Below are positions 1,489-59,051 of a DNA stretch of 64,000 bases, one piece after another. This DNA is from an uncultured Gammaproteobacteria bacterium. GTDB lineage: Bacteria > Patescibacteriota > Patescibacteriia > Magasanikbacterales > GWA2-37-8. The DNA lies in contig CAYUHX010000003.1 of assembly GCA_964444705.1 (NCBI GenBank), forward strand, positions 3,248-67,247. The letters run 5' to 3'. The position numbers and the translations under genes are program-made. Below the pieces are notes generated by a model. The model was not told the DNA's origin, did no database searches, and saw only the letters and a program-made list of their open reading frames with translations. Within the stretch, counting starts at the first letter, position 1; each line of letters opens with the position of its first letter.

Positions 1489-2844
1489 TTACTTTGATGA
1501 AGGAGTTTTTAAAAAAGTAACCACAAATTTTGCGTTTGTTGTTTGGGCCTGACCGCCCCCCACCACAAACGGTGCATCATTTTTATCCAAGAAAAACATT
1601 GCTTTCGGGTTATGCCGCGATGACATAATCACACATGTTTCAGGATCCTTAGGAAATTCTTGTAAAAAAAGACCCAATTCGACTTCATTCGCAAATTCTC
1701 TCCTCTCCCACGCAGTATCTTGATGAAGCCCAAACGCGAAGAGATACAAATCAGCATATTTTCGAAGTGGCCCTTTAACCAAAGTCGCTAATTTTACCTG
1801 CAATTCTTCGTCACCTAAATTGAGTAGATCTCGCTCGCTTATCTGGCCTTGATCTAAGGCATACCGCACTAAACGAATACGCGCGTCCTCTTCAAGTGCA
1901 TCTTCTGAACCATCATAAAAATCTTTCCACAAAGTGGCACGACACGCTAATATTGTTTGCCAAAATTTTTTTCCTTCTGCTGCATCGCTCCTGGTTTGCA
2001 AAACTGTTTTTATTTTTTTTAATTTCGCTGGCGGATAACCTGTGAGAGCACTCCATTCTTCGCGCAATGCGTCATTTGGGGAAAAACCTTCAGACACTCC
2101 ACGAATATCAAGCAAAGCTGCCTCAATGGTGTCTGGTTCTAAACGCTCGGGTATATCCATATAACGCGTATCAAAATACATGTACGACAAGGTATCACAC
2201 ATGCTTTGTATCGCACCCAAAGCACCTTCTTCTCGAATTATTCCTTCAATACTATGTGCATCTAACCCGAGCATTTCAAAAAGTGTGCCAAAAGAATCAG
2301 AGTGGAGCGTAGCGATCCCCCGCTCTTCATGATCAAGATATCCACGCTCTTTCACAAGAAATCGATCAGCAACATGATTAAATGCTGCATGGCCAATATC
2401 GTGGAGCATCCCTGCCGCATACAAATGGGCCGCCTCGCGATCAGACACACCGAGACGAGCAGCCACTATGCTTGAAAATTCAGAAATGAGTACTGAATGC
2501 TCCATGCGAGTATGTTCGGCGGGTTGTGATAACGAAGCGGTTATGGCCACACCTGCATCTCCCTGCCACCCCAGCGCACCCGCGCGTCTTCTAGCCCGAT
2601 CAATATGGGTTTGACTTCCCTTCCAAGCAATTTGGCGCAAACGTTCCAAGCGCAAAACTGCAGGTATTTTTTTTAACTCCTCTCGTATGCGTGCATACCT
2701 CTCTTGTCTTTTTTTAAGCAGTTCAGATTCTGCCGTAGTTAATTTTTCCCACACTGAAGCGCAAAGCTTATCGGGCGTCACACTATCTTTTTTTTCATTA
2801 ACGACTACACTTAATTTTTCCATACGCATATTTATTTTCCACAC
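1489..2844 (-). CDS. HD-domain phosphohydrolase (dGTPase-like)
   Basis: 451-aa ORF containing the HD metal-binding motif MLHDIGHAAFNHVADRF; the size fits the Dgt-like family. Confidence 0.55.
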   Translation of the reverse strand: MWKINMRMEKLSVVVNEKKDSVTPDKLCASVWEKLTTAESELLKKRQERYARIREELKKIPAVLRLERLRQIAWKGSQTHIDRARRRAGALGWQGDAGVAITASLSQPAEHTRMEHSVLISEFSSIVAARLGVSDREAAHLYAAGMLHDIGHAAFNHVADRFLVKERGYLDHEERGIATLHSDSFGTLFEMLGLDAHSIEGIIREEGALGAIQSMCDTLSYMYFDTRYMDIPERLEPDTIEAALLDIRGVSEGFSPNDALREEWSALTGYPPAKLKKIKTVLQTRSDAAEGKKFWQTILACRATLWKDFYDGSEDALEEDARIRLVRYALDQGQISERDLLNLGDEELQVKLATLVKGPLRKYADLYLFAFGLHQDTAWERREFANEVELGLFLQEFPKDPETCVIMSSRHNPKAMFFLDKNDAPFVVGGGQAQTTNAKFVVTFLKTPSSK

Positions 2845-5800
2845 GCGAGCAGACCCTGCCGCAATTCAGGCGTCATCGTAACTTGGTAGGGTGTTTTGAT
2901 TTGTTTACCTCCAACAAGTAAATATACCGTTTGTGTGCCCGGAAACTGGGCAAACAATGATTTTAAACTCTCCGCCTGACGTTTCATAATCTCGGCAGTG
3001 AGCGTTATCTCGAGACCGCGCGCAGTTTCTTCAATTACTACAGTATCATCAACGTGATCACTTCTCTTTTCAAACGTACTTGAGGTAACAGACGACGCCT
3101 GCGATGAACGACTACTACTATAGCCGGCAGAAACTTGTTGTGCCAAACCACCCACATTTTCTTTCGTCAATTGATAGGCTTTTTCTACGAACAATTTACT
3201 ATCACCTTCTTCCTCAGAAGTCTTGCCAATCACACACACCACCCGTCCCTCAACCCACACATCTTTGGTGGTTTCATATACTTTAGGAAAAACCAATAAC
3301 TCCAAACTACCAGTGGTATCTTGAATGGTGACAAACATCATAGGCTTACCCGCACGAGTAATTTTTTTCTTCGTACTATCAACCACACCGCCCACCACCA
3401 CCCAACTATTTCTGGTTTCACCACCCAAATCTTTAATGAGTGTCAATGATTTTGCGAGCACCCCTTGATAATACGCAAACGGATGTGACGTTACATAAAG
3501 CCCCAACAATTCTTTTTCCCATTTTATTTTGTCAGCCTCAAGAGCCGGCAACACTTTTTCAAGTCGCACTTTAGCCACAAAATCAATTTGCGAACCAGAA
3601 AACAATGAATGCTGCTTCGTGTTATTTTTTTCAACAGCTTGCTTGATGAACGATAGCAGGTTTTCAATATTACCAAGCAAAAAACCACGGTCAATACCAA
3701 GACTGTCCATAGCGCCGCATTTAATCAAACTCTCGAGTGATTTTTTGTTGAGATTACGATCATTAACACGCGTTAAAAAATCTTCGAGATTTTTGAAGAC
3801 ACCACCTTTTTTACGTTCTTCATAAATAACCTTAGCGATATGCTCACCTAAATTTTTAATACCTGCAAGGCCAAAACGAATGTGTGCCTCACCTCCATCT
3901 TCAGGCGTGATAATCGCAAATGTTTCGTGGCTCGCATTAATATCTGGTGGTAGCACCTTCACACCCATGCGCCCACATTCATGAATAATTTCAGGCACTT
4001 TTTCAATGTCACCACTCTCAGCAATCAAAATAGCGGTCATATACTCAAGCGGATAATTCGCCTTGAGATACGCCGTTTGATAGGCCACCACTGCATAACT
4101 CGCCGCGTGCGCCTTATTAAAACCATAGGCAGCAAACGGCTCAATTAATTCCCACAATTTTTGAATTTTTGCGTCTGGCACTTTACCAAAATCTTTGCAA
4201 CCTTTAAAAAATTTCTCCTTCTGTTTCATCATTTCTTCAGGAATTTTTTTACCCATGGCTTTACGAAACTTGTCAGCTTCTTCCCAGTTATAACCAGCTA
4301 AATTGATGGCTGACAAAAGCACGTCATCTTGATACACAATCAACCCAAGCGATTGATCTAAGTAATCTTTCATCCGTGGATCAAGATATTCAATCAAATC
4401 TTTGTTATTTTTTCGACGAATATACTCTGGAATAGATTCCATTGGACCAGGACGGAAAAGTGCCACCATGGCCATGATGTCAAAAATACTTTCCGGTTTT
4501 AATTCTTTCAAATAACGCGTCATGCCCGAACCAGAGAGTTGAAACACACCCACAGTTTCACCTCGTGCCAACATTTCGTAGGTGCGAAGATCGTCCCATG
4601 GTAGATGGTAAATATCAATACTAATACCACGCGTTTTTTCCACCAACACCACGGCGTGCCCCAAAATTGAGAGGTTGCGAATACCCAAAAAGTCCATTTT
4701 CAAAATGCCTGCCGCCTCAACGGAATGCATTTCATACTGAGTGGTTATTTTTCCTCCACCAGTTTCGTACTGTACGGGAGTAAACTCGTCGAGCGGTGTA
4801 GGCGAAATTACCACGCCCGCGGCATGAATAGAGGTATGCCTCGCGCATCCTTCCACCTTCTGTGCCAATTCGAGCAAACGATGTGCTTGAGCATTTTTAG
4901 TAAACAGCTCTTTTAAATCTGGCTCCAGTTCCAAAGCCTTAGCAATATTCATTTGAAATCCCTGCGCTCCAAACGGAATAAGTTTTGAAATTTGATCACA
5001 AAATGAATACGAATACCCGAGTGCCCGGCCCACATCACGCACTGCCCCCCGCGCCGCCATGGTTCCAAACGTAATAATCTGTGCCACTTTATCAATGCCA
5101 TATTTTTGGGTGACATAGGCAATCATTTCATCACGGCGATCGTCCGCGAAATCGGCGTCAATATCAGGCGGACTAGGGCGAAATGGGTTTAAAAAACGCT
5201 CAAACGGTAATTTGAAATAAAGCGGATTCACCGTAGTGATACCTAAGGCATAGGACACAATCGATCCAGCTCCCGAACCACGAGTTGTTTCAACAATGCC
5301 GTGCGTACGGGCATAGTGCACATAATCAGCCACCACCAAAAAATAAGGCGAATATCCTTTTTTTGTAATAATATCAAGCTCATAATCTGCTCTCGCCCGC
5401 ACATCATCTGTCACTTCAGTTAATGCAGGCAATTTTTCAAAAACGAGCGTTCGCAAATAGGTGTCCGCTGTCTCGCCAGGCGGAAGATCAACTGCCGCAA
5501 AGTGCCATTTATTGAGCTCAAGCTTAAGGTTAATACGCTCAGCAATGGCGAGCGTATTGGTAAGCGCTTCTGGCACATGTTTAAAACGCTTCGCAATTTC
5601 ATCTTCTTTACCCCAGGAATAATCAACCGCCACCATTGATGCCCGGTTTGGTTCTTCAATACTCACCCCTTCACGAATACACACCAAAATATCTTGCGCT
5701 TCAGCGTCTTCCGGGTGCATATAATGGCTATCACGCGTAACCACCAGAGGCAACCCAGTATCTTTAGCAAGCTTGATAAGTTCGGTATTGACCTCAAACT

Positions 5801-34253: not shown

Positions 34254-37200
34254 TTATTTTGTACTGAAGAGACCTGATCGTTCGATAAAATCGCGCGAAC
34301 TATCATACCTAAATGTACTCCCAGAGGTGGTTTTTACCACAATGGCACCAGTACCAATCTCACGATTAAAGACAAAATCTTTGTTATAAATAAGTGTCTT
34401 TTGTCCATCGACAGGATTAAGCGCCAATATCGCATGACTATCTTGTGCGGTGACCACAGGATGGTCGGCATCAAGACGATAATGATTCAATAATAATCTT
34501 ACTTCAGCACTTCCTTCTCCAGAAGGACGTAATAGCTCAAATACCTTATTCGGATCAATTGATTCATTTTTGATATCTTTCAGCACTTCTGCAGTTTGCA
34601 GCATTCTCTCGCTGCTTAACGACACTCTCCCACTTCCCTGCAGAACACCATTCATGTTTTGCTGCCAATCTCTAAGACGACTCAAAGCTTGAGCAGCCGG
34701 GTTTGATTCACGATCAGCTGATACAACTTTTACATTACCAAGATACCTCTCAATTTGTCGGCCGAAGGTACTTACCTGCGCCTCTACTTCATTTCGATTA
34801 CCGAGTTCACGAAATACCGCTGGAAGTTCTGCCTCCGCAGCCGTGCTTTCTACCACACTTGTTCTCGCTGCTGGCGCAGTTGATTTTGTTTCTAGTGCTG
34901 CCGCACCACGGGTGGCGGCCGGTTGCTCAGCGCCGACAGGCAATTTCCACGCTTCTTTTTCAGGGTCAAAACGAGTGATCACTTCTTCTCTTGCCACATC
35001 TTTTCCTTCTAAGACCACACGTACAGATCGACCATCTACCTGAATTTTCTCTGGATCTAAATTATCTAAGATAAATGGACCATTACTTTCGCGCGTATTG
35101 CCAATATAGACTTCAGCTTTTTTCTGCAAATCTTGCGGATCAACTTTCCATTGTGTTTCACGCACCTCACCGTGACCTGAGCCGCCAATCAAGGGGGCTT
35201 TACGCTCATCGAAGCCGAAGAAGCGCACGTTACCACGGAGTGAGAAATGATGCACTTCGTCTGCACCAAACTCGGCGTTGGCAATTTCGGTGGTGCCTTT
35301 GGCCTGAAGCAAGCGGCCAGTGGCATGAATAAGGGCCTGTTTTTCAGCCGCAGGCAACGTAGTCATTCTTTGATATTTGTCTACCAACTCTGGCAAAGAA
35401 TCACTACTTGGTTTTAAACCCGCTTCTTTCAAATACTCCAAGTGATGCCCACTAAAATTTTGGGATTTCAAGAAAGCCAACGCTTGTTCGGTGCCACCGT
35501 GAGCCAAGAGTTGTTCAAACGTAGCCTGCTTTACATCGCGCAGCACTTCGTATGGGGTATCAACTGCACTCTTAAACACATCACCGTGGAGCGATGAGGG
35601 GTGATTGCCCGAAGTACTCGCTTTCAAAATAGTCTGCAGTGATTCAGGGTTAGCGAGTGAAGGATATTTTTTAACAAGCGCAGCGAAAAAGACGCCAGTG
35701 TCTTTATCATCGATGATTTTTTCTCTTTCGCCAAAGGTCTTGAGTTCAGCAAACACATTTGATTCTTTTCTTCTTTCCGCAAGCGCACCAGCACCATCAG
35801 CAATTCGTCTTAAGGCTTCAGGCCCAGCTGCCTGCCCTGGTTCGGCCTTCGTAAGTAAACTACGGCCAAGTTCGGCAGCTCCTTGCTCCAAACTCACCGC
35901 CGCATTTTTCATCGCTCCAGGAATCCCGGCTAAACGCTCCGCGGTCTGCACCGTACCACCAACTGCATTATTATATAAAGCAGCCCCTAATTCTTTTTGT
36001 TCAAAGGCTCCAATCAATTTATCAATTGCTTGACTGGCGTGGGTATCAGTATTACCAAGCACAATGTCGGTAAGGCCCACTGCTCGTGCCATTGTTCCAA
36101 ACGCACTCACAAAGTCTGCGCCACGACGAACGACACCACCTTCTCCTTTGCGGCCTTTACCTCTAATCGCACTCCACCATTCTCCCAATGAGGTTAACAT
36201 TTCCTCTTTCACTGCTTTGGCACGATCGGCTTTTTCACCTTCTTGACCAGCACGATCAAGACCTTTGCTCACCATTTCAACGAGTGACATGGCACCATAC
36301 GCCGCGCCGCGCCACAAAGGCATACCAGCGAAGACCAAAGCCGTGTTTGCCACATCACGCACGCGAGCAATGGTTGAATTTTTACTATACAAAAATGCTT
36401 CGAGTGTTTTTTGCACTTTTTCATTACGCTGTTTAGTTTTATTTTCTGCCCCATCTTTATATTGATCAAACAGCACTTCTAAACGGCCAATAAGTTTTTC
36501 CTTCTCGGCAGGGTCAATAAAACGAGAATTTAAGATATTACCATTTACCCGAGTGAATCTTTCTTGCACACGAGCATCACTCTGTTCAATGGCCACATCC
36601 CGATTTTTCCAAAGTGCAAACACCTCTTCCATACCCCGAGCAATGAGCGCACGCTCAGCCTTGGCGTCTTGTCTTTCTTTAAAATAATTATAGATGTCGC
36701 CTTTTTTACGGATCGCTAATCCAAGATCGGCGAACGTCTTGAAACCAAACACTGAAAATACTGTGTCATACGTGGCTTTGCCGGCAGCCTTCCAAAAATC
36801 TTTGCTGGTAAATAATTCTTTTGTACCTTTCCAGAAACGACTAAGCACACCTTTCTTCTCTGCCGGCGGCACAACTCTTTCAATCCTGGTGGGCGAAGGC
36901 GCTGCCTCTGCCGCAGACAAATCCTCAACAAACGGCCTGTCAGCAGAACGATTAAAGGTTTCTGCTAATTCTGCCAAGGTTGAATCTTCCACAATAATCG
37001 ACGAAGCTGGCTTTGCACTCTCAGGTGACGAGGCAACAGACTCAACCATACCAGCCGCACCCATTCTCTCTCGATCGGGCGCAGCTACGGCGGCACTGAG
37101 CGCAGCCAATTCTTGAGCGGCCCCAGCAGCCGGTGTTACTATTTCTTTTGTCACGGCAGGAGCAGCTTCTTTTGGTTTTGCCGCTGGTTTTTCGGCACCA

Positions 37201-40200
37201 CCAAACGTCGCCAAAAGATTGGCAAAGTAGCCCACTAAACGATTGAGATTATCAACATCTTCGGTAGTGGCCTTTGGATGATTAAGAATTCTTCTTAACA
37301 TTTTGTCCGCCCGATCATACTCTTCGGCGTTTAAAAACACACCACTTTCAATCATGTTGTTCCAATAAGTGATTGCTTCCCCTTGCAAGGCTTCGGCCGC
37401 AGCCGCTCGCGCTTCTTTTAACGCCAACTCACGTCGTGCCTTCAGATCTTTCATTCCTTCGTTTTCAAACCACACTTTCCAGTAGGTGCCAGTGAGTAAG
37501 CGATCAATTTCGTTTCTAAATGTATGATCGGGATGCATACCAAATGATTCTTTTTTACCCGCTGCTTTATCGGCATGCCAAAGCTGTTGCGCTTTCTCAA
37601 TGGCTTCGTCAAGCGTAAGCGCTTTGCTTTCTTCCTTTTTTGATTCGGCACCGACTATTACATCACCGGCTCCAATTCGAGAAACACCAATACGAAAACC
37701 TTCATCAGCTTTCTCTGCTGATTTTTCGGTACGAATAGCTTTACGAAATTCTTCAACCGCAAAACGCGCTTCTTTACGGGCAACAGTATCTGATTTTCCT
37801 TGTGTTATCGCGCGCCAATAGGCCCCCACCCGTATTTCTTGAGCTTCATTCTCTGGTTTAAAATCAGAATTGATACCCCAACGCTCTTCATTGCCCTCAT
37901 CGGCAGGTTCTGGCTTGACCAGTCTGGCTTCAGCAATATACCGACGAGCGTCTTCGAGCGTGATCGGTCGAAGATCAGGGCCAATGTCTGAAACCTCTTG
38001 CCCTGGCTTAGCTCCTTTCGCTTCAGACTCAGCGGTGACCAAACGTTCAAACCGTCGTACCAAAAAATTAAGACGATCGATATCTTCCACCGAAAAATAG
38101 GGGTGAGTATTGATTTTTTCTAATAATTTTTCCCCATCTTTTACCTTTGCCACCGCTTCTCCGGCGTTAAGCCAGATATCAAGCGCTTGATCACGAAGAA
38201 AATAGGCCGCAGTGGCACAGGCTTCTTTTTGAGCCACACCATCATTTTTACCTTCAAAATGAGCGCGCCAAAATGCGCCTACGCGAATAGTTTCAACCGG
38301 GCTCCGTGGTTTAAACGACGCCATGATTGGACCATCTTTTTCTTCTTTCTTACCTTTTTCAATAAAAGCATTGGCTTCATCCAAGGTAATCGGCCGAGGG
38401 CTCAAAAATGCTTCACTCTCCCCGGTTTCCTGCTTTCTTACTTCAGCAGCACCCGCACTTCGTTCTGGCATCTTCCACAAACCACGAATACCGGCAACCG
38501 GAATGTTCAATCGCTGCACCACCTGCCCATACAACATGCCAAACCTATTTAAATTTGGTTCTTTTGTTGCCGAACCAAGATTGCCGCGCAATTGGTGCAG
38601 GTTTTTAATCAATTGCTCGTCTTTTTCTAAGGCGCTGGCATGATTCTTTTTAAGATAGGTAAGAAGGTCGTTAAATTGCTGCTCGCCTTCTTGTTTAGAT
38701 GCAGCGGCAACATAGTCAGCACCGGGCGCAACCTCACTCGGTCGAACTTGTTCTTTCAATAATGCAAAATTTGCAGAAAATTCTTTCAATGCCTCTTCAA
38801 AAGCGGCGGCTTCTTGCTCTCCCCGCGCATCCCACAATAATAATCTTTCCAAGGCTGCTTCTACCTCACCAAACTCTTTGGTTTTTTCTTTTCTTCTCTC
38901 TGCATAGGCATCACCAAGCGCCGTATAAAACTCAGTGTATTGTTTAAGAATACGTTCTTTTTTTCTAAATAGTGTGCCAAAAATTTTGGCTTCGGCGTTG
39001 GCCGCCGCCTTAACTTTATCGACATCAAATTTTCCACCACTCCTCTTTTTTTCTTCGCCTGCTTCTAACCACACCCGGCCACGCACACCACTAAATATCA
39101 AATCGGTTTCTGTAGATCCTTCTTTTTCTTCCCATTTTTCAGGTTTGAATTCTTTTAATTTTTTCAAATAATTTTCGAACTTGGCTCGTATTTCGGTAAA
39201 CGAATCACCGGCGGCTTTTTCTACCTCTTGAGCAGAGATGCCGGTAAACACCTCACGCGAAACTTCTTGAACAAAATTAAAATTCGAATCGGCCTTACCA
39301 ACAAGAGAAGCAACAATCTTTCCACACTTCTCAGCCAAAACCTCTATTTGTGTAGTAAATCGAGCAGTAAATGGTTCTGAAGAAATTTTCTTTCTCAAAT
39401 CTTCAATTTGACCAAGCAAACTTGACGAATCTGAATTCTTACCGAGATGCTGTGCAGTCATTCGACCAATCACTGGCATTATTTCTCCTAGCTTAACTTT
39501 TTCATCTACTTCAGACTTAATTCTGCTTAATACCTTACCCATCGCCACCAAATATTCTAGTGCAGTCTTTTTTTGCTCTTCAGAAGAAAGTTCTGTGGCT
39601 TCAACAACAGGTGCGGAAGGAAGCTCTGGCGCGGGCGCGGCCTCAGGGGCAGGAGCAGTATTTGTGGTTCTATCAGCGACGACGCGGTTAACAGAAAATT
39701 TTCCAGATTCCGTAAAAGGTTTTAGATCTTTAATTTGATCTCCAGTACCTGATTGAGAAATCGTATAATGTCTTCCATCAAACACCAATTTCAAACCCGC
39801 GGCTACTGGAGGAACTACCTGACGCCCCGCGTCAGCTTGATTTGTGACATCGGGGGCAGCTGCTTCAACCACAACAGGTGCAGCCTCGGCAATAGCAGCA
39901 GCTAACTGAACTCGAGCGGCCGCAACTTGTGCACGCAATGCTTGCTGAGCAGCAACCTCGCGATCTTTCTTTTCCAACCAGGCTTCAAACCGAGCTTGAT
40001 ACTCTTCTAAACGAGCCGCCACAGCTGAAAGATCTGTAGTTTTAGGATCTGCATCTTTTAGATCGCGGGAAAATTCAGCTGCTTCATCAGACAGAACATC
40101 TAATTCATCTCTTAACTTAGAGTTGTTTAATCCCCATCTTTGCAAATCTGAAGATTGCTCGGAGAATTGATTCAAAAAATCGATAAAACCTTTTTCTATC

Positions 40201-40823
40201 CTACTTTTTGCACGCTCCCGGTCGCCAGCTTCTCTATTTTTCGCGAGAACAGCGCCAGGACTTTCATCTTCATCAGACTCACCTTCTTCATCATCAACGG
40301 GAGCCGACTTTATCTCCGGTGCGCTGGCCGTAGGTGCTGCAGTAGTTGCGGAAACTTCAGGTCCTTTTGATGGTTCTCCACCCTTATTAGCAGATGATTG
40401 TGCCGTAGTTTCATTTTCCCCACTTATAATTTTTTTAAATTGAGCAGCTTGTTTTATCTCTACAGCATCACCCTCTCTCCCTCCTCTTCTCGTAACAAAC
40501 GCTAACAATCTTTGTTCACCGCTCTGTTCCACCGCGTTCAATCGAACGGTGAAAGAACCATAGTCCATCACAACACCACCATTTTTGGTGTCTTTAAAAA
40601 AAGCTACTGGTCGAAACTGCTGATCAAGATCAGCAAACTGGATTTTAAAAATTTGCTTTTTCCCTACAAACTTTGCAAAGCTACCTCCTTCTTGTCCATT
40701 AAACGAAGCTGAAACGTCTTTTTTAGCTACTTTTTTTCCAATTTGAAACTGTCCTTCTAAACGTTCCCAAAACTCTCGCCCACCGGCTGAATCTCTACCT
40801 TCTACTCCGTGTCCTTTACTCAT
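34254..40823 (-). CDS. giant hypothetical protein (2189 aa), Ala/Glu/Lys-rich with three internal ~130-aa tandem repeats
   Basis: A single uninterrupted ORF. Repeats occur at roughly aa 808-945, 950-1065 and 1065-1205 (PITLDEANAFI...RVGAFWRAHFEGKNDGVAQKEA / PITLEDARRYI...RVGAYWRAITQGKSDTVARKEA / LTLDEAIEKAQ...TGTYWKVWFENEGMKDLKARRELA). Confidence 0.75.
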   Translation of the reverse strand: MSKGHGVEGRDSAGGREFWERLEGQFQIGKKVAKKDVSASFNGQEGGSFAKFVGKKQIFKIQFADLDQQFRPVAFFKDTKNGGVVMDYGSFTVRLNAVEQSGEQRLLAFVTRRGGREGDAVEIKQAAQFKKIISGENETTAQSSANKGGEPSKGPEVSATTAAPTASAPEIKSAPVDDEEGESDEDESPGAVLAKNREAGDRERAKSRIEKGFIDFLNQFSEQSSDLQRWGLNNSKLRDELDVLSDEAAEFSRDLKDADPKTTDLSAVAARLEEYQARFEAWLEKKDREVAAQQALRAQVAAARVQLAAAIAEAAPVVVEAAAPDVTNQADAGRQVVPPVAAGLKLVFDGRHYTISQSGTGDQIKDLKPFTESGKFSVNRVVADRTTNTAPAPEAAPAPELPSAPVVEATELSSEEQKKTALEYLVAMGKVLSRIKSEVDEKVKLGEIMPVIGRMTAQHLGKNSDSSSLLGQIEDLRKKISSEPFTARFTTQIEVLAEKCGKIVASLVGKADSNFNFVQEVSREVFTGISAQEVEKAAGDSFTEIRAKFENYLKKLKEFKPEKWEEKEGSTETDLIFSGVRGRVWLEAGEEKKRSGGKFDVDKVKAAANAEAKIFGTLFRKKERILKQYTEFYTALGDAYAERRKEKTKEFGEVEAALERLLLWDARGEQEAAAFEEALKEFSANFALLKEQVRPSEVAPGADYVAAASKQEGEQQFNDLLTYLKKNHASALEKDEQLIKNLHQLRGNLGSATKEPNLNRFGMLYGQVVQRLNIPVAGIRGLWKMPERSAGAAEVRKQETGESEAFLSPRPITLDEANAFIEKGKKEEKDGPIMASFKPRSPVETIRVGAFWRAHFEGKNDGVAQKEACATAAYFLRDQALDIWLNAGEAVAKVKDGEKLLEKINTHPYFSVEDIDRLNFLVRRFERLVTAESEAKGAKPGQEVSDIGPDLRPITLEDARRYIAEARLVKPEPADEGNEERWGINSDFKPENEAQEIRVGAYWRAITQGKSDTVARKEARFAVEEFRKAIRTEKSAEKADEGFRIGVSRIGAGDVIVGAESKKEESKALTLDEAIEKAQQLWHADKAAGKKESFGMHPDHTFRNEIDRLLTGTYWKVWFENEGMKDLKARRELALKEARAAAAEALQGEAITYWNNMIESGVFLNAEEYDRADKMLRRILNHPKATTEDVDNLNRLVGYFANLLATFGGAEKPAAKPKEAAPAVTKEIVTPAAGAAQELAALSAAVAAPDRERMGAAGMVESVASSPESAKPASSIIVEDSTLAELAETFNRSADRPFVEDLSAAEAAPSPTRIERVVPPAEKKGVLSRFWKGTKELFTSKDFWKAAGKATYDTVFSVFGFKTFADLGLAIRKKGDIYNYFKERQDAKAERALIARGMEEVFALWKNRDVAIEQSDARVQERFTRVNGNILNSRFIDPAEKEKLIGRLEVLFDQYKDGAENKTKQRNEKVQKTLEAFLYSKNSTIARVRDVANTALVFAGMPLWRGAAYGAMSLVEMVSKGLDRAGQEGEKADRAKAVKEEMLTSLGEWWSAIRGKGRKGEGGVVRRGADFVSAFGTMARAVGLTDIVLGNTDTHASQAIDKLIGAFEQKELGAALYNNAVGGTVQTAERLAGIPGAMKNAAVSLEQGAAELGRSLLTKAEPGQAAGPEALRRIADGAGALAERRKESNVFAELKTFGEREKIIDDKDTGVFFAALVKKYPSLANPESLQTILKASTSGNHPSSLHGDVFKSAVDTPYEVLRDVKQATFEQLLAHGGTEQALAFLKSQNFSGHHLEYLKEAGLKPSSDSLPELVDKYQRMTTLPAAEKQALIHATGRLLQAKGTTEIANAEFGADEVHHFSLRGNVRFFGFDERKAPLIGGSGHGEVRETQWKVDPQDLQKKAEVYIGNTRESNGPFILDNLDPEKIQVDGRSVRVVLEGKDVAREEVITRFDPEKEAWKLPVGAEQPAATRGAAALETKSTAPAARTSVVESTAAEAELPAVFRELGNRNEVEAQVSTFGRQIERYLGNVKVVSADRESNPAAQALSRLRDWQQNMNGVLQGSGRVSLSSERMLQTAEVLKDIKNESIDPNKVFELLRPSGEGSAEVRLLLNHYRLDADHPVVTAQDSHAILALNPVDGQKTLIYNKDFVFNREIGTGAIVVKTTSGSTFRYDSSRDFIERSGLFSTK

Positions 40824-41177: not shown

Positions 41178-41376
41178 ATAATTATGTATGAAGAAAATAA
41201 ATGAATGGCTATATATTACCACTTTTTTTAAACTATGCCTATCAAAAATGACTAAAACAGTGCATTATACCCTATTTTTTCGATTTTGTCAATCATGAAA
41301 TACTCAAATTTTATCTATCTTTTAAACAAAAATACTTTTCACGCACGTATGTGTATGTGACACACAATAAAAAAAA

Positions 41377-41394
41377 CCAGTCTTTTCAGACTGG
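41377..41394 (-). terminator. rho-independent terminator downstream of tRNA-Leu
   Basis: Hairpin CCAGTCT-gaaa-AGACTGG followed by T8 on the minus strand. Confidence 0.55.
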
Positions 41395-41425: not shown

Positions 41426-41510
41426 TGGTGCCGCCGGTCGGAATCGAACCGACATGCCGTGAGGCACACGATTTTGAGTCGTGCGTGTCTACCAATTCCA
41501 CCACGGCGGC
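41426..41510 (-). tRNA. tRNA-Leu (anticodon CAA), CCA encoded
   Basis: Cloverleaf GCCGCCG.../...CGGCGGC-A-CCA, anticodon loop CUCAAAA, long variable arm and T-loop TTCGATT. Confidence 0.85.
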
Positions 41511-41517
41511 AATACTA

Positions 41518-41757
41518 CTAATCAAAAGTCTTTTTTACAAATTCTCTACCAACACCTGATTTTAAATATTTTTCTCGTTTCCTCGCTTCTTCTCTTGATG
41601 AGTGGGTTTCAATACACAAAGTTCTAAAAGGAGCATAAGGTTTGGTAGTACGATTATACCCTTTATTATGCTGAGCAATACGCCGCTCGGGATTATCTGA
41701 TAATCCTACGTACGTGTACTCCCGCGCAATACTTCTAAGTATATAGGTGTAATACAT
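41518..41757 (-). CDS. small GIY-YIG nuclease-domain protein (UPF0213/YhbQ-like)
   Basis: 79-aa ORF containing YTYILRS...YVGLSDNPERRIAQHN...REEARKREKYLK, the GIY-YIG catalytic core pattern. Confidence 0.65.
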   Translation of the reverse strand: MYYTYILRSIAREYTYVGLSDNPERRIAQHNKGYNRTTKPYAPFRTLCIETHSSREEARKREKYLKSGVGREFVKKTFD

Positions 41758-41765
41758 AGAAAAGC

Positions 41766-41831
41766 CACACGATTTTGAGCCTGCCTGTCGGCAGACAGGT
41801 CGTGCGTGTCTACCAATTCCACCACGGCGGC
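41766..41831 (-). pseudogene. partial duplicate of the tRNA-Leu 5' half carrying a 20-nt GC-rich palindromic insert
   Basis: GCCGCCGTGGTGGAATTGGTAGACACGCACGA is identical to the intact tRNA. CCTGTCTGCCGACAGGCAGG is then inserted before the anticodon loop. CTCAAAATCGTGTG follows, after which the sequence diverges into the GIY-YIG start. Confidence 0.45.
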
Positions 41832-41920
41832 CTAAAATGCCTGCTCATCATATAAAAAAAAAATTCCTTTGTCAATCAATTAGGCGTATGGTATACTTTG
41901 TTAAAATAGTAGCGTCTTCT

Positions 41921-56128: not shown

Positions 56129-56374
56129 ATGACTACCCCACATAAAACTATTCAAGTTGGTGACATCTACGAACATTACAAACGCCCACATCGCTATGAA
56201 ATAGTGGCCATTGCCCACGACCACGAGTCGCTAGCTGAAGTGGTGGTGTATAAAGGATTATATACCCACCCCGAGCTGGGCGAAAATGCATTGTGGGTGC
56301 GGCCAAAAACGATGTTTTTAGAAGAGGTAGAATTTGAAGGAAAAAAAATGCAGCGATTTAAAAGAATTGGCTAA
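56129..56374 (+). CDS. small DUF1653-like protein
   Basis: 81-aa ORF following the pattern YEHYKRPHRYEIVAIAHDHESLAEVVVYKGLYTHPELGENALWVRP typical of DUF1653 proteins. Confidence 0.45.
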   Translation: MTTPHKTIQVGDIYEHYKRPHRYEIVAIAHDHESLAEVVVYKGLYTHPELGENALWVRPKTMFLEEVEFEGKKMQRFKRIG

Positions 56375-56390
56375 AAAATTACCTTTAAAA

Positions 56391-56419
56391 AACTCACCTG
56401 GATTTCAAGTGAGTTTTTT
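56391..56419. terminator. hairpin terminator after the DUF1653 gene
   Basis: AACTCAC...GTGAGTT stem flanked by an A-run and T6. Confidence 0.5.
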
Positions 56420-56633
56420 ATTGCGCAACCATTTAGCATCACTCAATTCAATCACTTCTCGTCGAAGAAAAAATTCTCCCTTTGGCTCGGATAAAGATTC
56501 CGGACAAAAGGGCGAACGACGAGGGGTGGCGGAAGAACAATGCGGCGGCGCCCCCAGCAGTGCGATGCTGCTGGCCGGAGGCGCGACTGCGCGCTGAGTT
56601 GGGATGGTCCAGAGTCCGCGCCGTGCCCGTGGG

Positions 56634-57221
56634 TTACGGGGTGGGGGCGGCCGGCGCCACCTGCTGCGCGATGATCCAGTCCACCGTCAAGAAACTGCCG
56701 CCACCGCGCTTCAGGATGGGCGCGTACTTATCATAGTACGCCTGCGTGATACGCACCGCGGCCTGCCCCCCCAGCTGCACGTAGGTCGGGGACGGCCAGA
56801 GGGTCGGATACTCGGAGGGCGAAAGGTAGCTGTCGCACGTCTGGCCGACCATCCCGAACTTCGCGCAGGGGGCGGGTCCGTGGGCGGTGACCTGGACCAG
56901 GAAGACGGTGGACGAACTGAGAGGGAAGCTGGCCTTGTCCGACGGCGTGAAGTAGCAGGCGGTGACCGACGTCGTCCGCTGCTCATTCAGCCCCTTCGCC
57001 TCGTACTGGCAGGACCACTCGCCGTCCTTGGTGGGGCCGGGGGTGACGATGAACTGGACCAGGCCATCGTACTGCTGCAGAGAGGGGGGGAAGACGAAGT
57101 CGAACTCGTATGGGGTGACGACGTCGCCCTTTCCACCGCAGCCGGCGCTACCCATGGCGAGGGCCAGGGCGATGCCGAGGACGAAGGAACGACCCTTGTT
57201 CTGATTCTTGCTGTCACGCAT
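56634..57221 (-). CDS. putative lipoprotein (high-GC island 4)
   Basis: ~65% GC, SD AGGAGA with the ATG at 57221, a signal peptide plus a Cys after ...LAMGSAGC, and several further Cys. Confidence 0.55.
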   Translation of the reverse strand: MRDSKNQNKGRSFVLGIALALAMGSAGCGGKGDVVTPYEFDFVFPPSLQQYDGLVQFIVTPGPTKDGEWSCQYEAKGLNEQRTTSVTACYFTPSDKASFPLSSSTVFLVQVTAHGPAPCAKFGMVGQTCDSYLSPSEYPTLWPSPTYVQLGGQAAVRITQAYYDKYAPILKRGGGSFLTVDWIIAQQVAPAAPTP

Positions 57222-57511
57222 CGGAAACACTCTCCTGTAGATTATTCATGCTTCCCTCTCAGCCAACCGAAGCCGAGGGAACAATGGCAAGGACCTAAAA
57301 ACATCTCTGTCTCCAGGCGGTTAAAGAAGCACTTTTTTAAAAAGAAATTCTTCAGCCGCCTGGAAAAAATTGGAAAAGATCAAATGTTATTACCCTTAAA
57401 CCAAAGATAACAACAAATCAAACTAACATACTGTTTAGTAGCTGTCAAGCTATTGTCGAGATAGTTTTATTCTATTTTGTTTATTCTTAGCCAAATATTA
57501 TTTTTTACCCC

Positions 57512-57540
57512 TTGACAAATGGCAAAAAATGTGCTAACTT
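57512..57540 (+). promoter_or_regulatory. candidate promoter (TTGACA-17-TAACTT) in the low-GC spacer between the two divergent high-GC lipoprotein genes
   Basis: The -35 hexamer is consensus but the -10 is weak. Confidence 0.3.
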
Positions 57541-57717
57541 AGTTTTAATTTAGTTGTATCTCTCTTTGAGAAGCAATTTGCTCATTACCAAATTATTTCG
57601 GGAAAAATATACAGCTCCAGTGAGTTGGGGAGAATAGAGTCGTGCCAAATAAAACAGTTTTGGATTCTCTTTTCTCTCCAGCTATCTCTACCATCTGCAA
57701 GTCCCCGCGCCAACAAG

Positions 57718-57732
57718 GGCGGGGCAGACAGG
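57718..57732. repeat. left 15-bp inverted repeat (GGCGGGGCAGACAGG) flanking island 5
   Basis: Matches the reverse complement of 58973-58987 (GGCAGGGCAGACAGG) at 14 of 15 positions. Confidence 0.4.
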
Positions 57733-57739
57733 AGCACCC

Positions 57740-58546
57740 ATGTGTCTTTCCATCAATGGTTCTGTGCGTCGTTTCTTCGTCATCACCGGCCTCCTCCTGA
57801 CCGCCGCGGCCAGCGGCTGCGGCATCTGGCCGGAGGAGCACTACGCGACCGGCGATTCGACCGTGTACGAGCCGGTCATGAAGGCGCCGGACGCGCCCAT
57901 GCCCCCGGCGGCGACCTGCTACGACCTGGTCTTCGAGAAGAACGCGTCGTCCAAGGGCGCCAGCGCCCAGGGCTACTACTGGTTCGATGCCAACACCTCC
58001 CACACCCAGTTCGCGGCCGGGTCCTTCAGCCTGCTGAACCCGACCGGGACCGGGCAGTACTGCAACGTCACCATCCCGGCCCCCGACGGCCACCTGGCGA
58101 GCCTGTCCATCCCGCGAATGGCTGCCAACTTCCGCCACACCACCGCACAGTCGGGCAAGCTCATCACGATCATCGACTACAACATCGACCTCCCCCAGGA
58201 GCCGCGGGTGGAGTCCCTGCAGATCGTGGTCTTCGCCGACCAGCTGGCGCCCAACGACACGTGCGCCGGCGAGCGGACCCGCCTGGCCTTCAACGGCCTC
58301 GCCATCACGGCTCGCACCTGCTCGATCCGCTCGGCCAACGGCAGCAGCACGACCCCGGCGGTGACCCAGTTCACCATCAACGAGGTGAACGGCGGCTGCC
58401 TCCTGCAGCAGCGGACCGGCAACGGCAGCCCGGCCATCTACACCCAGGCAGCCGCGGAGGTTGAGGCTGACAGCGCCGGGGCCGACTGGAGCTTCCAGTC
58501 CACCCAGCTGGCCAGCGACGACCTGGTCGAGTGCTCCGCGCAGTAG
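57740..58546 (+). CDS. putative lipoprotein (high-GC island 5)
   Basis: ~66% GC, SD CAGGAG, a signal peptide ending AAASGC and Cys-containing, Gly/Thr/Ala-rich mature protein. Confidence 0.55.
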   Translation: MCLSINGSVRRFFVITGLLLTAAASGCGIWPEEHYATGDSTVYEPVMKAPDAPMPPAATCYDLVFEKNASSKGASAQGYYWFDANTSHTQFAAGSFSLLNPTGTGQYCNVTIPAPDGHLASLSIPRMAANFRHTTAQSGKLITIIDYNIDLPQEPRVESLQIVVFADQLAPNDTCAGERTRLAFNGLAITARTCSIRSANGSSTTPAVTQFTINEVNGGCLLQQRTGNGSPAIYTQAAAEVEADSAGADWSFQSTQLASDDLVECSAQ

Positions 58547-58683
58547 GCGCCGCGCCACTTTTTCCCGACCCCACCGGAGATCATCCGCCGCCGCTCCCCC
58601 TCGCATGAGGGGTCGAGCGCTCGCTGCCCGTCTCCTCCTGCTTTCTGTTAATAATTATTGTTAACAAAAAGTAGGACACAAAA

Positions 58684-58972: not shown

Positions 58973-59012
58973 CCTGTCTGCCCTGCCTACCGGCAGGCAG
59001 GCGACAGGCAGG
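58973..59012. repeat. 40-nt GC-rich nested palindromic element (expanded form of the 20-mer in the pseudo-tRNA)
   Basis: CCTGTCTGCC+CTGCCTACCGGCAGGCAGGC+GACAGGCAGG; the outer 10+10 nt equal the 20-mer found at 41780-41799 (reverse complement). Confidence 0.45.
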
Positions 59013-59030
59013 CTAAAAACTAAAACCTTT

Positions 59031-59051
59031 AACCTAAAACCTACAACCTAA
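59031..59051. repeat. three tandem copies of heptamer AACCTA(A/C) abutting the asnS stop
   Basis: AACCTAA AACCTAC AACCTAA. Confidence 0.4.

Follow-up and report, generated by a model that had tools for sequence, protein, structure and literature searches.

A GIY-YIG Nuclease Gene Paired with a 20-nt Palindrome in Split and Rebuilt Bacterial tRNA-Leu Genes: A Candidate Mobile Cassette

Organization of the tRNA-Leu(CAA) Unit

We analyzed a 64-kb stretch of DNA, hereafter the window, which corresponds to positions 3,248 to 67,247 of contig CAYUHX010000003.1 (assembly GCA_964444705.1). It comes from an uncultured bacterium labeled as Gammaproteobacteria in GenBank and placed by GTDB among the Patescibacteriota (Magasanikbacterales, GWA2-37-8). 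The window carries a tRNA-Leu(CAA) unit in which the gene of a 79-aa GIY-YIG nuclease lies between a 5' fragment of the tRNA, interrupted by a 20-nt palindromic insert (PAL), and an intact copy of the same tRNA (table 1). The nuclease gene is the only open reading frame (ORF) between the two tRNA repeats. It is also the only gene of its family in the window, which contains two PAL sites. Positions are those of the window, and the unit is read on the minus strand throughout.

Table 1. Features of the tRNA-Leu(CAA) unit and the second PAL site of the window
Feature	Position	Strand	Evidence or remark
Sigma-70-type promoter, TTGACA-17-TATGAT	41847..41875	-	11/12 consensus matches in promoter scan; near-consensus
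tRNA-Leu(CAA) bases 1-32: acceptor 5' strand, D arm, anticodon stem 5' strand	41800..41831	-	Identical to intact gene
PAL, window variant CCTGTCTGCCGACAGGCAGG (minus-strand reading)	41780..41799		Anticodon stem/loop boundary, no target duplication
tRNA-Leu bases 33-46: anticodon loop including CAA, anticodon stem 3' strand	41766..41779	-	Exact copy
Linker GCTTTTCT, 8 nt, fragment to start codon	41758..41765	-	Sequence
GIY-YIG nuclease gene, 79 aa, single-domain	41518..41757	-	Pfam PF01541
Linker, 7 nt, stop codon to base 1 of intact tRNA	41511..41517	-	Sequence
Intact tRNA-Leu(CAA), 85 nt, CCA encoded	41426..41510	-	ARAGORN; Rfam 59.9 bits
Intrinsic terminator, 7-bp stem (41394-41377) then T-run	41369..41394	-	Sequence, hairpin scan
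Second PAL site: consensus-type PAL CCTGCCTACCGGCAGGCAGG (58982-59001) nested in centre of window-variant PAL	58973..59012		

An earlier note on this locus had described a 46-nt perfect copy of the tRNA 5' half, a palindromic 20-mer at the junction of the anticodon stem and loop, a 79-aa GIY-YIG ORF, and an intact tRNA followed by a terminator. The duplicated tRNA sequence is indeed an exact match of 46 nt, in two pieces (bases 1-32 and 33-46), and the Pfam, ARAGORN, Rfam, and hairpin searches recovered the ORF, the tRNA, and the terminator. The ARAGORN cloverleaf also places the 20-mer where it had been located. One correction concerns its palindromy. The 20-mer of this unit is an imperfect palindrome that forms two overlapping short hairpins and departs at two positions from the family consensus, the perfect 20-nt palindrome CCTGCCTGCCGGCAGGCAGG. 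Its insertion point is ambiguous by one C: the unit can be read as an exact copy of the first 33 nt (41831-41799), the 20-mer, and the next 13-14 nt (41779-41766), and the cleanest split is 1-32 / 20-mer / 33-46.

The net insert amounts to 321 nt: PAL (20), the tRNA duplication (46), the first linker (8), the ORF (240), and the second linker (7). It spans positions 41479-41799 within the resident tRNA-Leu(CAA) gene. The fragment with bases 1-32 occupies the place of the original gene's 5' end relative to the promoter, with a spacer of about 15 nt between the -10 box and base 1. By inspection, no obvious Shine-Dalgarno sequence is present in the 8-nt linker preceding the start codon.

ARAGORN and Rfam call only the downstream copy as a tRNA. 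Apart from the tRNA, Rfam returned only sub-threshold chance matches and no intron family. The promoter scan revealed no second promoter-like site on the minus strand between the promoter and the terminator. From these consensus scans, the fragment, the ORF, and the tRNA are therefore predicted to form a single transcription unit, running from the tRNA promoter to the lone terminator. The intact tRNA-Leu(CAA) lacks its own promoter and would therefore have to be freed from the transcript that carries the ORF, presumably through RNase P cleavage.

A Single-Domain GIY-YIG Protein

The 79-aa protein matches the Pfam GIY-YIG domain PF01541 over residues 1-67 (E = 1.7e-17). In an alignment of 27 sequences, the family-invariant residues Y5, Y16, G18, R26, and E62 are all present in it. 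The AlphaFold model (pLDDT 95.2) consists of the GIY-YIG core only, with no DNA-binding or accessory domain. The closest solved folds are the catalytic domains of HIGLE and Slx1 (TM about 0.7) and UPF0213 proteins, to which a profile match was also obtained (E about 5e-7). The fold match to I-TevI is weak (E 0.12). The ratio of nonsynonymous to synonymous substitution rates (dN/dS) ranges from 0.07 to 0.14 in well-aligned pairs, two out-of-register pairs being ignored, and is 0.13 between the window and its relative L001. These values indicate that the protein is functional.

The Arrangement Is Shared across a Multi-Phylum Family

Relatives of about 80 aa were found in Patescibacteria (Magasanikbacteria and others), Bacteroidota, Omnitrophota, Ignavibacteriota, and Balneolia. 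An all-against-library search grouped the family into 316 clusters (50% identity) at E <= 1e-10 and 3,671 at E <= 1e-3; NCBIfam has no model for it. We compared 81 loci, namely the window and the best 80 of at least 551 confirmed matches. As these 80 are the best-scoring subset, the sample is biased toward intact genes.

In 76 of the 81 cases, the ORF directly adjoins a tRNA gene of the same strand. With few exceptions this is a tRNA-Leu gene, and all five anticodons are represented: CAA (34), GAG (16), CAG (10), TAA (8), and TAG (4). At a few loci, the neighbor is a tRNA-Arg gene. Two architectures are distinguishable. Class A, which comprises 50 loci including the window, consists of a 5' tRNA fragment, the ORF, and the intact tRNA. 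In class B, with 26 loci mostly from Bacteroidota, an intact tRNA with its terminator is followed by the ORF and a 3' tRNA fragment. In both classes, the tRNA fragment is broken by the same 20-nt PAL. PAL lies within 150 nt of the ORF at 71 loci, on one side in 66 cases and on both sides in five. In total, 95 PAL matches with at most four mismatches occur in the 320 kb of these loci, where about zero are expected.

The design is found again in numerous assemblies obtained independently, among them complete genomes and those of isolates, e.g., Niabella (L055) and Algoriphagus (L012, L019, and L023). Among more distant relatives, it involves tRNA-Asn (L159), tRNA-Ser (L165), tRNA-Lys (L188), and tRNA-Arg (L209), and it is also present on a viral contig (L112). 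On this contig (L112:400-990), a fragment, PAL, and a GIY-YIG ORF precede a tRNA of another type (ccccggtagctcagttggta...). The downstream "intact" copy there carries a long insert after the anticodon-stem region, which may be an intron, and is not called as a tRNA.

At L214 (520-1010), a family ORF is flanked by a tRNA-Leu(TAA) fragment, which contains two PALs, and by the intact tRNA. We rejected the possibility that this is a decayed copy. Its in-frame UGA codons fall exactly at conserved glycines (YV*L, KS*I*KE), indicating that the contig uses genetic code 25, of the Gracilibacteria/Absconditabacteria type, to which the gene is adapted; with UGA read as Gly the ORF is intact. At L205 (4960-5480), a more distant GIY-YIG relative (hidden Markov model score 38) is followed by two PALs inside repeated sequence unrelated to tRNA (...tgtcatatcgagggaagcaaagcgacgaga[PAL]tatccca...). 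The gene/palindrome pairing thus exists outside tRNA genes too.

No frame of PAL contains a stop codon, and for this reason gene callers often extend ORFs through the fragment and the palindrome. In an independent sample, a translated tRNA D arm plus PAL (e.g., "...ELVDTHDLPAGRQAQN") was recognized in 5/14 and 13/58 N-terminally extended homologs. Such read-through yields false N-terminal extensions in annotations, and the partial tRNA copies can likewise confuse tRNA annotation.

Occupied and Empty Alleles of an Orthologous Site

The ParA protein places the host of the window among Magasanikbacteria-like Patescibacteria. In related Magasanikbacteria, we compared the orthologous site, defined as the tRNA-Leu(CAA) gene divergent from parA. 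It is occupied in the window, L236, and L237 by the fragment, PAL, and the ORF, with PAL at the same tRNA position. It is empty in L238, L240, L241, and L242, which have a promoter, tRNA, and terminator only. The earlier note had asked whether relatives carry one uniform arrangement, and they do not. Occupied alleles keep the promoter-to-base-1 spacing of the empty allele L238, which shows that the resident gene was split and rebuilt downstream. Across the insertion point, the regenerated tRNA reads ...cacgactcaaaatcgtg..., the same as in L238. The element thus splits the old tRNA gene and regenerates an intact tRNA downstream, is polymorphic at an orthologous site, and belongs to a multi-phylum family.

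In the occupied allele L236, PAL (2270-2295, minus strand) has one extra CAGG unit (CTGCCTGCCGGCAGGCAGGCAGG), which suggests slippage of the CCTG/CAGG units composing the palindrome. The tRNA fragment of L236 shows one mismatch to its own intact tRNA.

The association with a given tRNA is not fixed. Nearest-neighbor ORFs have the anticodon in common in only 35 of 76 cases, and the PAL position is specific to the ORF lineage. The PAL-position clusters x=14 and x=15 span CAA, CAG, GAG, and TAA genes. In the x≈32 cluster (the window and L001-L005), the fragment downstream of PAL includes the anticodon, and only CAA genes are found. A PAL position fixed per lineage and the confinement of x≈32 to CAA genes are as predicted for homology-guided integration via the tRNA fragment. 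Identical ORF copies are present in tandem arrays at L013 and L078.

PAL Interrupts tRNA Copies at Loops

We mapped the flanks of PAL onto the neighboring intact tRNA; a position is uncertain by 1 nt if the base next to PAL is the same as the terminal base of PAL. At 39 of the 56 upstream sites and 14 of the 25 downstream ones, the flanks are joined with neither gap nor overlap. PAL is thus a clean 20-nt insertion, without target duplication. Class A fragments start at tRNA base 1 in 36 of 39 cases, and their 5' part is identical to the neighboring tRNA in 33 of 39. The median length of tRNA sequence past PAL is 14 nt, and the median distance from PAL to the start codon is 25 nt.

On the ARAGORN cloverleaf (n=53), 24 insertion points fall inside a loop, 27 exactly at a loop/stem boundary, and two in stems. 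Hence 51 of 53 lie in or at loops, against 33% of junctions by chance, and they represent about ten distinct positions. By loop, 34 insertion points belong to the D loop and nine each to the anticodon and T loops. The PAL site of the window lies at the 5' edge of the anticodon loop.

On two viral contigs (L105:2239-2330 and L082 near 8616), PAL is found in the variable region of a full-length tRNA-Met, between the anticodon and T arms. ARAGORN still calls these as tRNAs, and a tRNA might accommodate the 20-nt hairpin at this place as an additional arm.

The Algoriphagus loci L012, L019, and L023, from three species, carry, at the T-stem/T-loop boundary (about 70-130 nt past the ORF stop), an insert that has diverged from PAL. 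Its stem is kept by paired changes, CGTGCC/GGCACG in L012 and L019 and CATCCC/GGGATG in L023. From these three sequences only, preservation of the hairpin is suggestive. A second PAL-like insert is present further along the same fragment in these loci.

PAL Is Also Dispersed on Its Own

The variant of PAL found in the tRNA unit of the window also occurs in L029, L033, L047, L049, and L055, and as its reverse complement in L008 and L058. The second site of the window lies in the intergenic region of two convergent genes and is distant from all tRNA and nuclease genes. It is a nested pair, which can be written CCTGTCTGC[C CTGCCTACCGGCAGGCAGG]CGACAGGCAGG, and heptamer-like tandem repeats follow it (within 58973-59050: ctaaaac ctaaaac ctttaac ctaaaac ctacaac). 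Shuffled windows gave zero matches to the palindrome with up to three mismatches, against the two sites observed, and a chance origin of these sites is excluded. Elsewhere, PALs are split at their centre by 20-44 nt of other sequence (L010, L011, L054, and L080). The second site of the window adjoins G+C-rich islands (56300-57000 and 57500-58600; 0.65-0.69 vs. a window mean of 0.45) with long overlapping ORFs on both strands, among them an ORF with a lipoprotein-like N-terminus (57740-58546). These islands may be foreign DNA.

Exact copies of PAL are carried by 35 viral stretches and by at least 120 from metagenomes. The viral contigs are those of IMG/VR and may include cellular fragments. At well-flanked sites, i.e., with at least 400 nt on both sides, we searched for a family ORF within 500 nt and a tRNA within 400 nt. 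Neither was found near PAL at 40 of 42 viral and 78 of 84 metagenome sites (118/126), with a slight undercount of ORFs in contigs using code 25. A GIY-YIG ORF usually adjoins those PALs whose flanks resemble a tRNA. Among 158 unique dispersed sites, a purine precedes PAL in 71%. Target duplications of at least 7 nt are seen in about 2% of them; with the contiguity of the tRNA flanks, this led us to reject target-site duplication around PAL. Many dispersed PALs lie inside or between arrays of ~7-nt tandem repeats (L081, L104, L118, L133, L161, L175, L189, and L229), and the array is sometimes inverted on the other side of PAL.

The 20-mer is the key feature of the locus: it is a conserved hairpin repeat that goes with the nuclease family and is dispersed on its own, which was beyond the reach of a single-locus reading.

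Comparison with Known Systems

Among described systems, Ssn offers the closest parallel. SsnA is a 94-aa single-domain GIY-YIG enzyme that binds a hairpin repeat in single-stranded DNA (ssDNA) only and cuts beside it (Chenal et al. 2025, PMC11893778). The ssn gene is flanked by repeats; these NTS/SRM repeats form hairpins, and the NTS is directional. The enzyme has no action on RNA, and in Neisseria it restricts or modulates incoming ssDNA. Its authors noted a resemblance to insertion sequences, and their paper mentions neither tRNA nor Bacteroidota nor Patescibacteria (PMC11893778). No SsnA structure is deposited among the solved structures.

Judged by the published features, both systems have a single-domain GIY-YIG protein of ~80-95 aa (79 aa here) with no DNA-binding domain, and in both the gene is accompanied by a short hairpin-forming inverted repeat (20-50 nt). 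The Ssn repeats are dispersed in the genome as well; PAL, for its part, has a second site in the window and many sites away from the gene in viral and metagenome stretches. The motifs are different: none of the 95 PAL sites fits the SRM consensus HGTCWYN(0-2)YYVSBRHN(0-5)WNVSBRGN(0-2)RNCYNB, and we rejected PAL as an SRM motif. The repeat-gene-repeat order of Ssn is not reproduced either, PAL usually lying on one side only. Being a perfect palindrome, PAL has no built-in orientation, unlike the directional NTS. Finally, the gene studied here is embedded in a tRNA operon with a partial tRNA duplication.

With free-standing GIY-YIG homing endonucleases such as T4 Seg and I-TevI, the element shares the catalytic fold and conserved residues. 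It is likewise a small, putatively selfish gene next to or within a conserved gene, with presence/absence polymorphism between relatives and a spread that would depend on flanking homology. I-TevI and the Seg proteins carry a DNA-binding module, whereas the protein described here has no separate DNA-binding domain. In addition, its target is regenerated unchanged, so that there is no immunity by site disruption, and a conserved palindrome accompanies the gene.

REP/RAYT and IS200/IS605 systems also combine a nuclease gene with short dispersed palindromic repeats that form hairpins in ssDNA. Their enzymes are HUH/Y1 transposases, which act through covalent intermediates and can rejoin DNA. The protein here is of the GIY-YIG type, and the unit contains no HUH (Y1) transposase ORF. 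GIY-YIG enzymes hydrolyze DNA and cannot ligate it. REPs are not known from tRNA loops beside duplicated tRNA fragments.

The closest sequence and fold matches, Slx1/HIGLE and the UPF0213 proteins EF2693 and BH0048, are only about 28-33% identical to the protein. Slx1 recognizes DNA by its structure, cutting branched and stem-loop forms; it possesses an additional RING domain and a partner, Slx4. UPF0213 proteins have neither a known function nor a known repeat association. Islands and phages that integrate into tRNA genes resemble the element in using a tRNA gene as a landing site and in restoring a functional tRNA by insert-borne sequence. They differ from it in several respects: here there is no integrase, the insert is about 0.3 kb, the 5' part is restored in the class of the window, and a palindrome lies inside the leftover fragment.

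By analogy, the element would come closest in its working to the Ssn pair of nuclease and hairpin repeat, while living in the manner of a free-standing homing-endonuclease gene, and it lacks defining features of each. Full-text literature searches returned no description of a tRNA-resident GIY-YIG/palindrome element, although most subscription-journal papers are outside their coverage and absence is not proof.

A Proposed Mechanism of Mobility

The explanation that we favor, and consider reasonably probable, is that of a mobile or once-mobile nuclease cassette paired with a cognate hairpin repeat, expressed from the tRNA promoter and built to regenerate the tRNA. That the DNA is tRNA-targeted and mobile was already the claim of the earlier note, and the occupied and empty alleles support it, as do the variable spacing, PAL position, and fragment-bearing side.

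The manner of movement is one that we infer. The insertion comprises PAL, a short tRNA run, the promoterless 79-aa GIY-YIG gene, and a replacement copy of the 5' part of the tRNA. By analogy with SsnA, the bare GIY-YIG core may recognize the PAL hairpin, or hairpin/loop structures, in ssDNA and cut there. Copies of PAL may enter single-stranded loops of folded DNA, which would explain both the loop positions in tRNAs and the nesting of PAL in PAL. The gene unit may spread among tRNA-Leu genes by homology-guided copying or recombination through the tRNA fragment. Judging from their topology, both architectures could arise when a unit with a PAL-interrupted tRNA fragment and the ORF is recombined or copied into a tRNA gene on the side of PAL that restores the tRNA. 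Alternative products would destroy an essential tRNA and be lost, so that only tRNA-restoring products survive. At the RNA level, tRNA processing as generally established would include an RNase P cut at tRNA base 1, by which the mRNA would be parted from the tRNA and end 7 nt after the stop codon.

A bolder version of this proposal is possible, although we hold it only tentatively. PAL itself might be a mobile hairpin and, with its 20 nt, one of the smallest mobile DNAs known. To insert into single-stranded loops of folded DNA, such as those of the tRNA-gene cloverleaf or the tip of another PAL, it would depend on a dedicated 80-aa GIY-YIG nuclease. The gene of this nuclease would ensure that it is expressed and retained by residing in essential tRNA operons, in a form that always rebuilds the tRNA. 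This would represent a new transposition-like mechanism, combining a hydrolytic enzyme with host repair, across Patescibacteria, Bacteroidota, and other phyla, and reaching phage genomes.

Several points weigh against the mobile cassette or parts of its mechanism. A hydrolytic GIY-YIG enzyme does not by itself account for the insertion of a constant 20-nt palindrome. Flanking inverted repeats of at least 7 nt are found at 7.0% of the 158 dispersed sites versus 1.6% of random junctions in the same contigs, an approximately 4-fold excess, and most sites have no obvious structure. Hairpin-loop targeting outside tRNAs is thus weakly supported, and we claim it only for tRNA contexts and for PAL-in-PAL nesting. 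The loop-restricted positions stem from few founding events and could partly reflect the survival of products. Contrary to a simple homing scheme, some fragments differ from the neighboring tRNA (L005, L029, L072, and L011); that of L005 is wholly foreign and its intact gene native. Fragments can therefore travel or decay.

Other points concern how active or selfish the element is. Two ORFs of one metagenome-assembled genome (L048 and L051) are only ~60% identical at the nucleotide level, as old paralogs would be, and give no sign of recent within-genome jumping. A tblastn search found no copy in cultured phages or PLSDB plasmids. The Algoriphagus loci look vertically inherited (L012/L019, synonymous divergence dS 0.26) under purifying selection, which fits domestication as well as selfishness, and the low dN/dS of the ORF (0.07-0.14) speaks against a purely selfish form. 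In some lineages, the element may be largely resident and even useful to the host.

Alternative Explanations

This last point leads to a domesticated host system of the Ssn type, compatible with the cassette proposed above and in itself rather unlikely. The nuclease and the dispersed PALs would serve the cell, e.g., by restricting or modulating incoming ssDNA, and the tRNA-Leu location would be a frozen relic. Strong purifying selection speaks for such a role. So do the Algoriphagus loci, which appear to be inherited vertically and in which paired changes preserve the hairpin, the adjustment of the gene to genetic code 25, and the variety of contexts, viral contigs among them, over which PAL is dispersed. 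SsnA provides a functional precedent (PMC11893778). However, patchy presence at an orthologous site among close relatives, repeated switching among tRNA-Leu paralogs and other tRNA types, and tandem amplification are all unexpected for a settled host gene.

The earlier note had suggested a homing-endonuclease-like insertion. As a general type this stands, but its classical form appears doubtful, and we judge it unlikely. In that form, a free-standing endonuclease would cut the double-stranded tRNA-Leu gene at the insertion point, the cassette would be copied by break repair, and PAL would merely disrupt the target in the retained fragment. Presence and absence at the orthologous site are as expected for homing. 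So is the conservation of PAL position when the tRNA-Leu paralog changes, with the anticodon-containing lineage confined to CAA genes, and the topology of the products corresponds to break repair from an occupied donor. Yet the 79-aa catalytic core has no DNA-binding module, unlike I-TevI or Seg, and the regenerated tRNA is the same as the empty alleles at the insertion point, so that the host copy would stay cleavable. Nor does classical homing explain the conservation of one 20-nt sequence across phyla, its nesting in itself, or its dispersal far from tRNAs.

A regulatory or tRNA-related function is very unlikely. The tRNA-like leader and its hairpin would then be a cis-regulatory element or a decoy, and the nuclease would act on tRNA-Leu or its precursor, in line with the predicted co-transcription with tRNA-Leu and the specific linkage to it. 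The fragment, however, can be a 5' piece that lies upstream or a 3' piece that lies downstream; its length varies widely, and PAL occupies ~10 positions. This variation in spacing, PAL position, and fragment side across the family argues against a conserved regulatory leader. Empty alleles exist, and the characterized analog SsnA has no RNA activity. The fold of the leader is ordinary (z = -1.46), and a special leader RNA structure was rejected on this basis.

Hardly any weight remains for the remnant of an integrase-type island, a tRNA intron or split tRNA, or an assembly artifact. Although tRNA genes are classical integration sites and partial tRNA repeats their footprint, the degenerate integrative element considered in the earlier note finds no support, given the absence of an integrase, the mere 321 nt of extra DNA, and the duplication of the 5' end. 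The same note had rightly argued against an intron: a complete tRNA follows the ORF, Rfam finds no intron, and the upstream fragment ends at base 46, so that with its 3' half missing no splicing could make a functional tRNA of it. An artifact is at odds with the recurrence of the design in many independent assemblies, including complete genomes and isolates.

Implications

If the proposed cassette is real, a large family of ~80-aa GIY-YIG proteins that lacks annotation gains a function and a cognate DNA motif, and the nuclease/hairpin-repeat pairing of Ssn is extended to new phyla and a new motif. It would also represent a new way to occupy an essential gene, in which a tRNA gene is split and rebuilt, its promoter is borrowed, and the mRNA is set free by tRNA processing. 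As has been proposed for Ssn enzymes, this bare 79-aa nuclease, with its defined 20-nt hairpin partner, may be considered a candidate tool for work on ssDNA. The polymorphism between occupied and empty alleles makes the question of mobility directly testable.

Neighboring Genes

Two genes downstream of the tRNA-Leu unit and on the same strand, the window contains a 2,189-aa ORF (34254-40823, minus strand) that is rich in Ala, Glu, and Lys and includes repeated segments.

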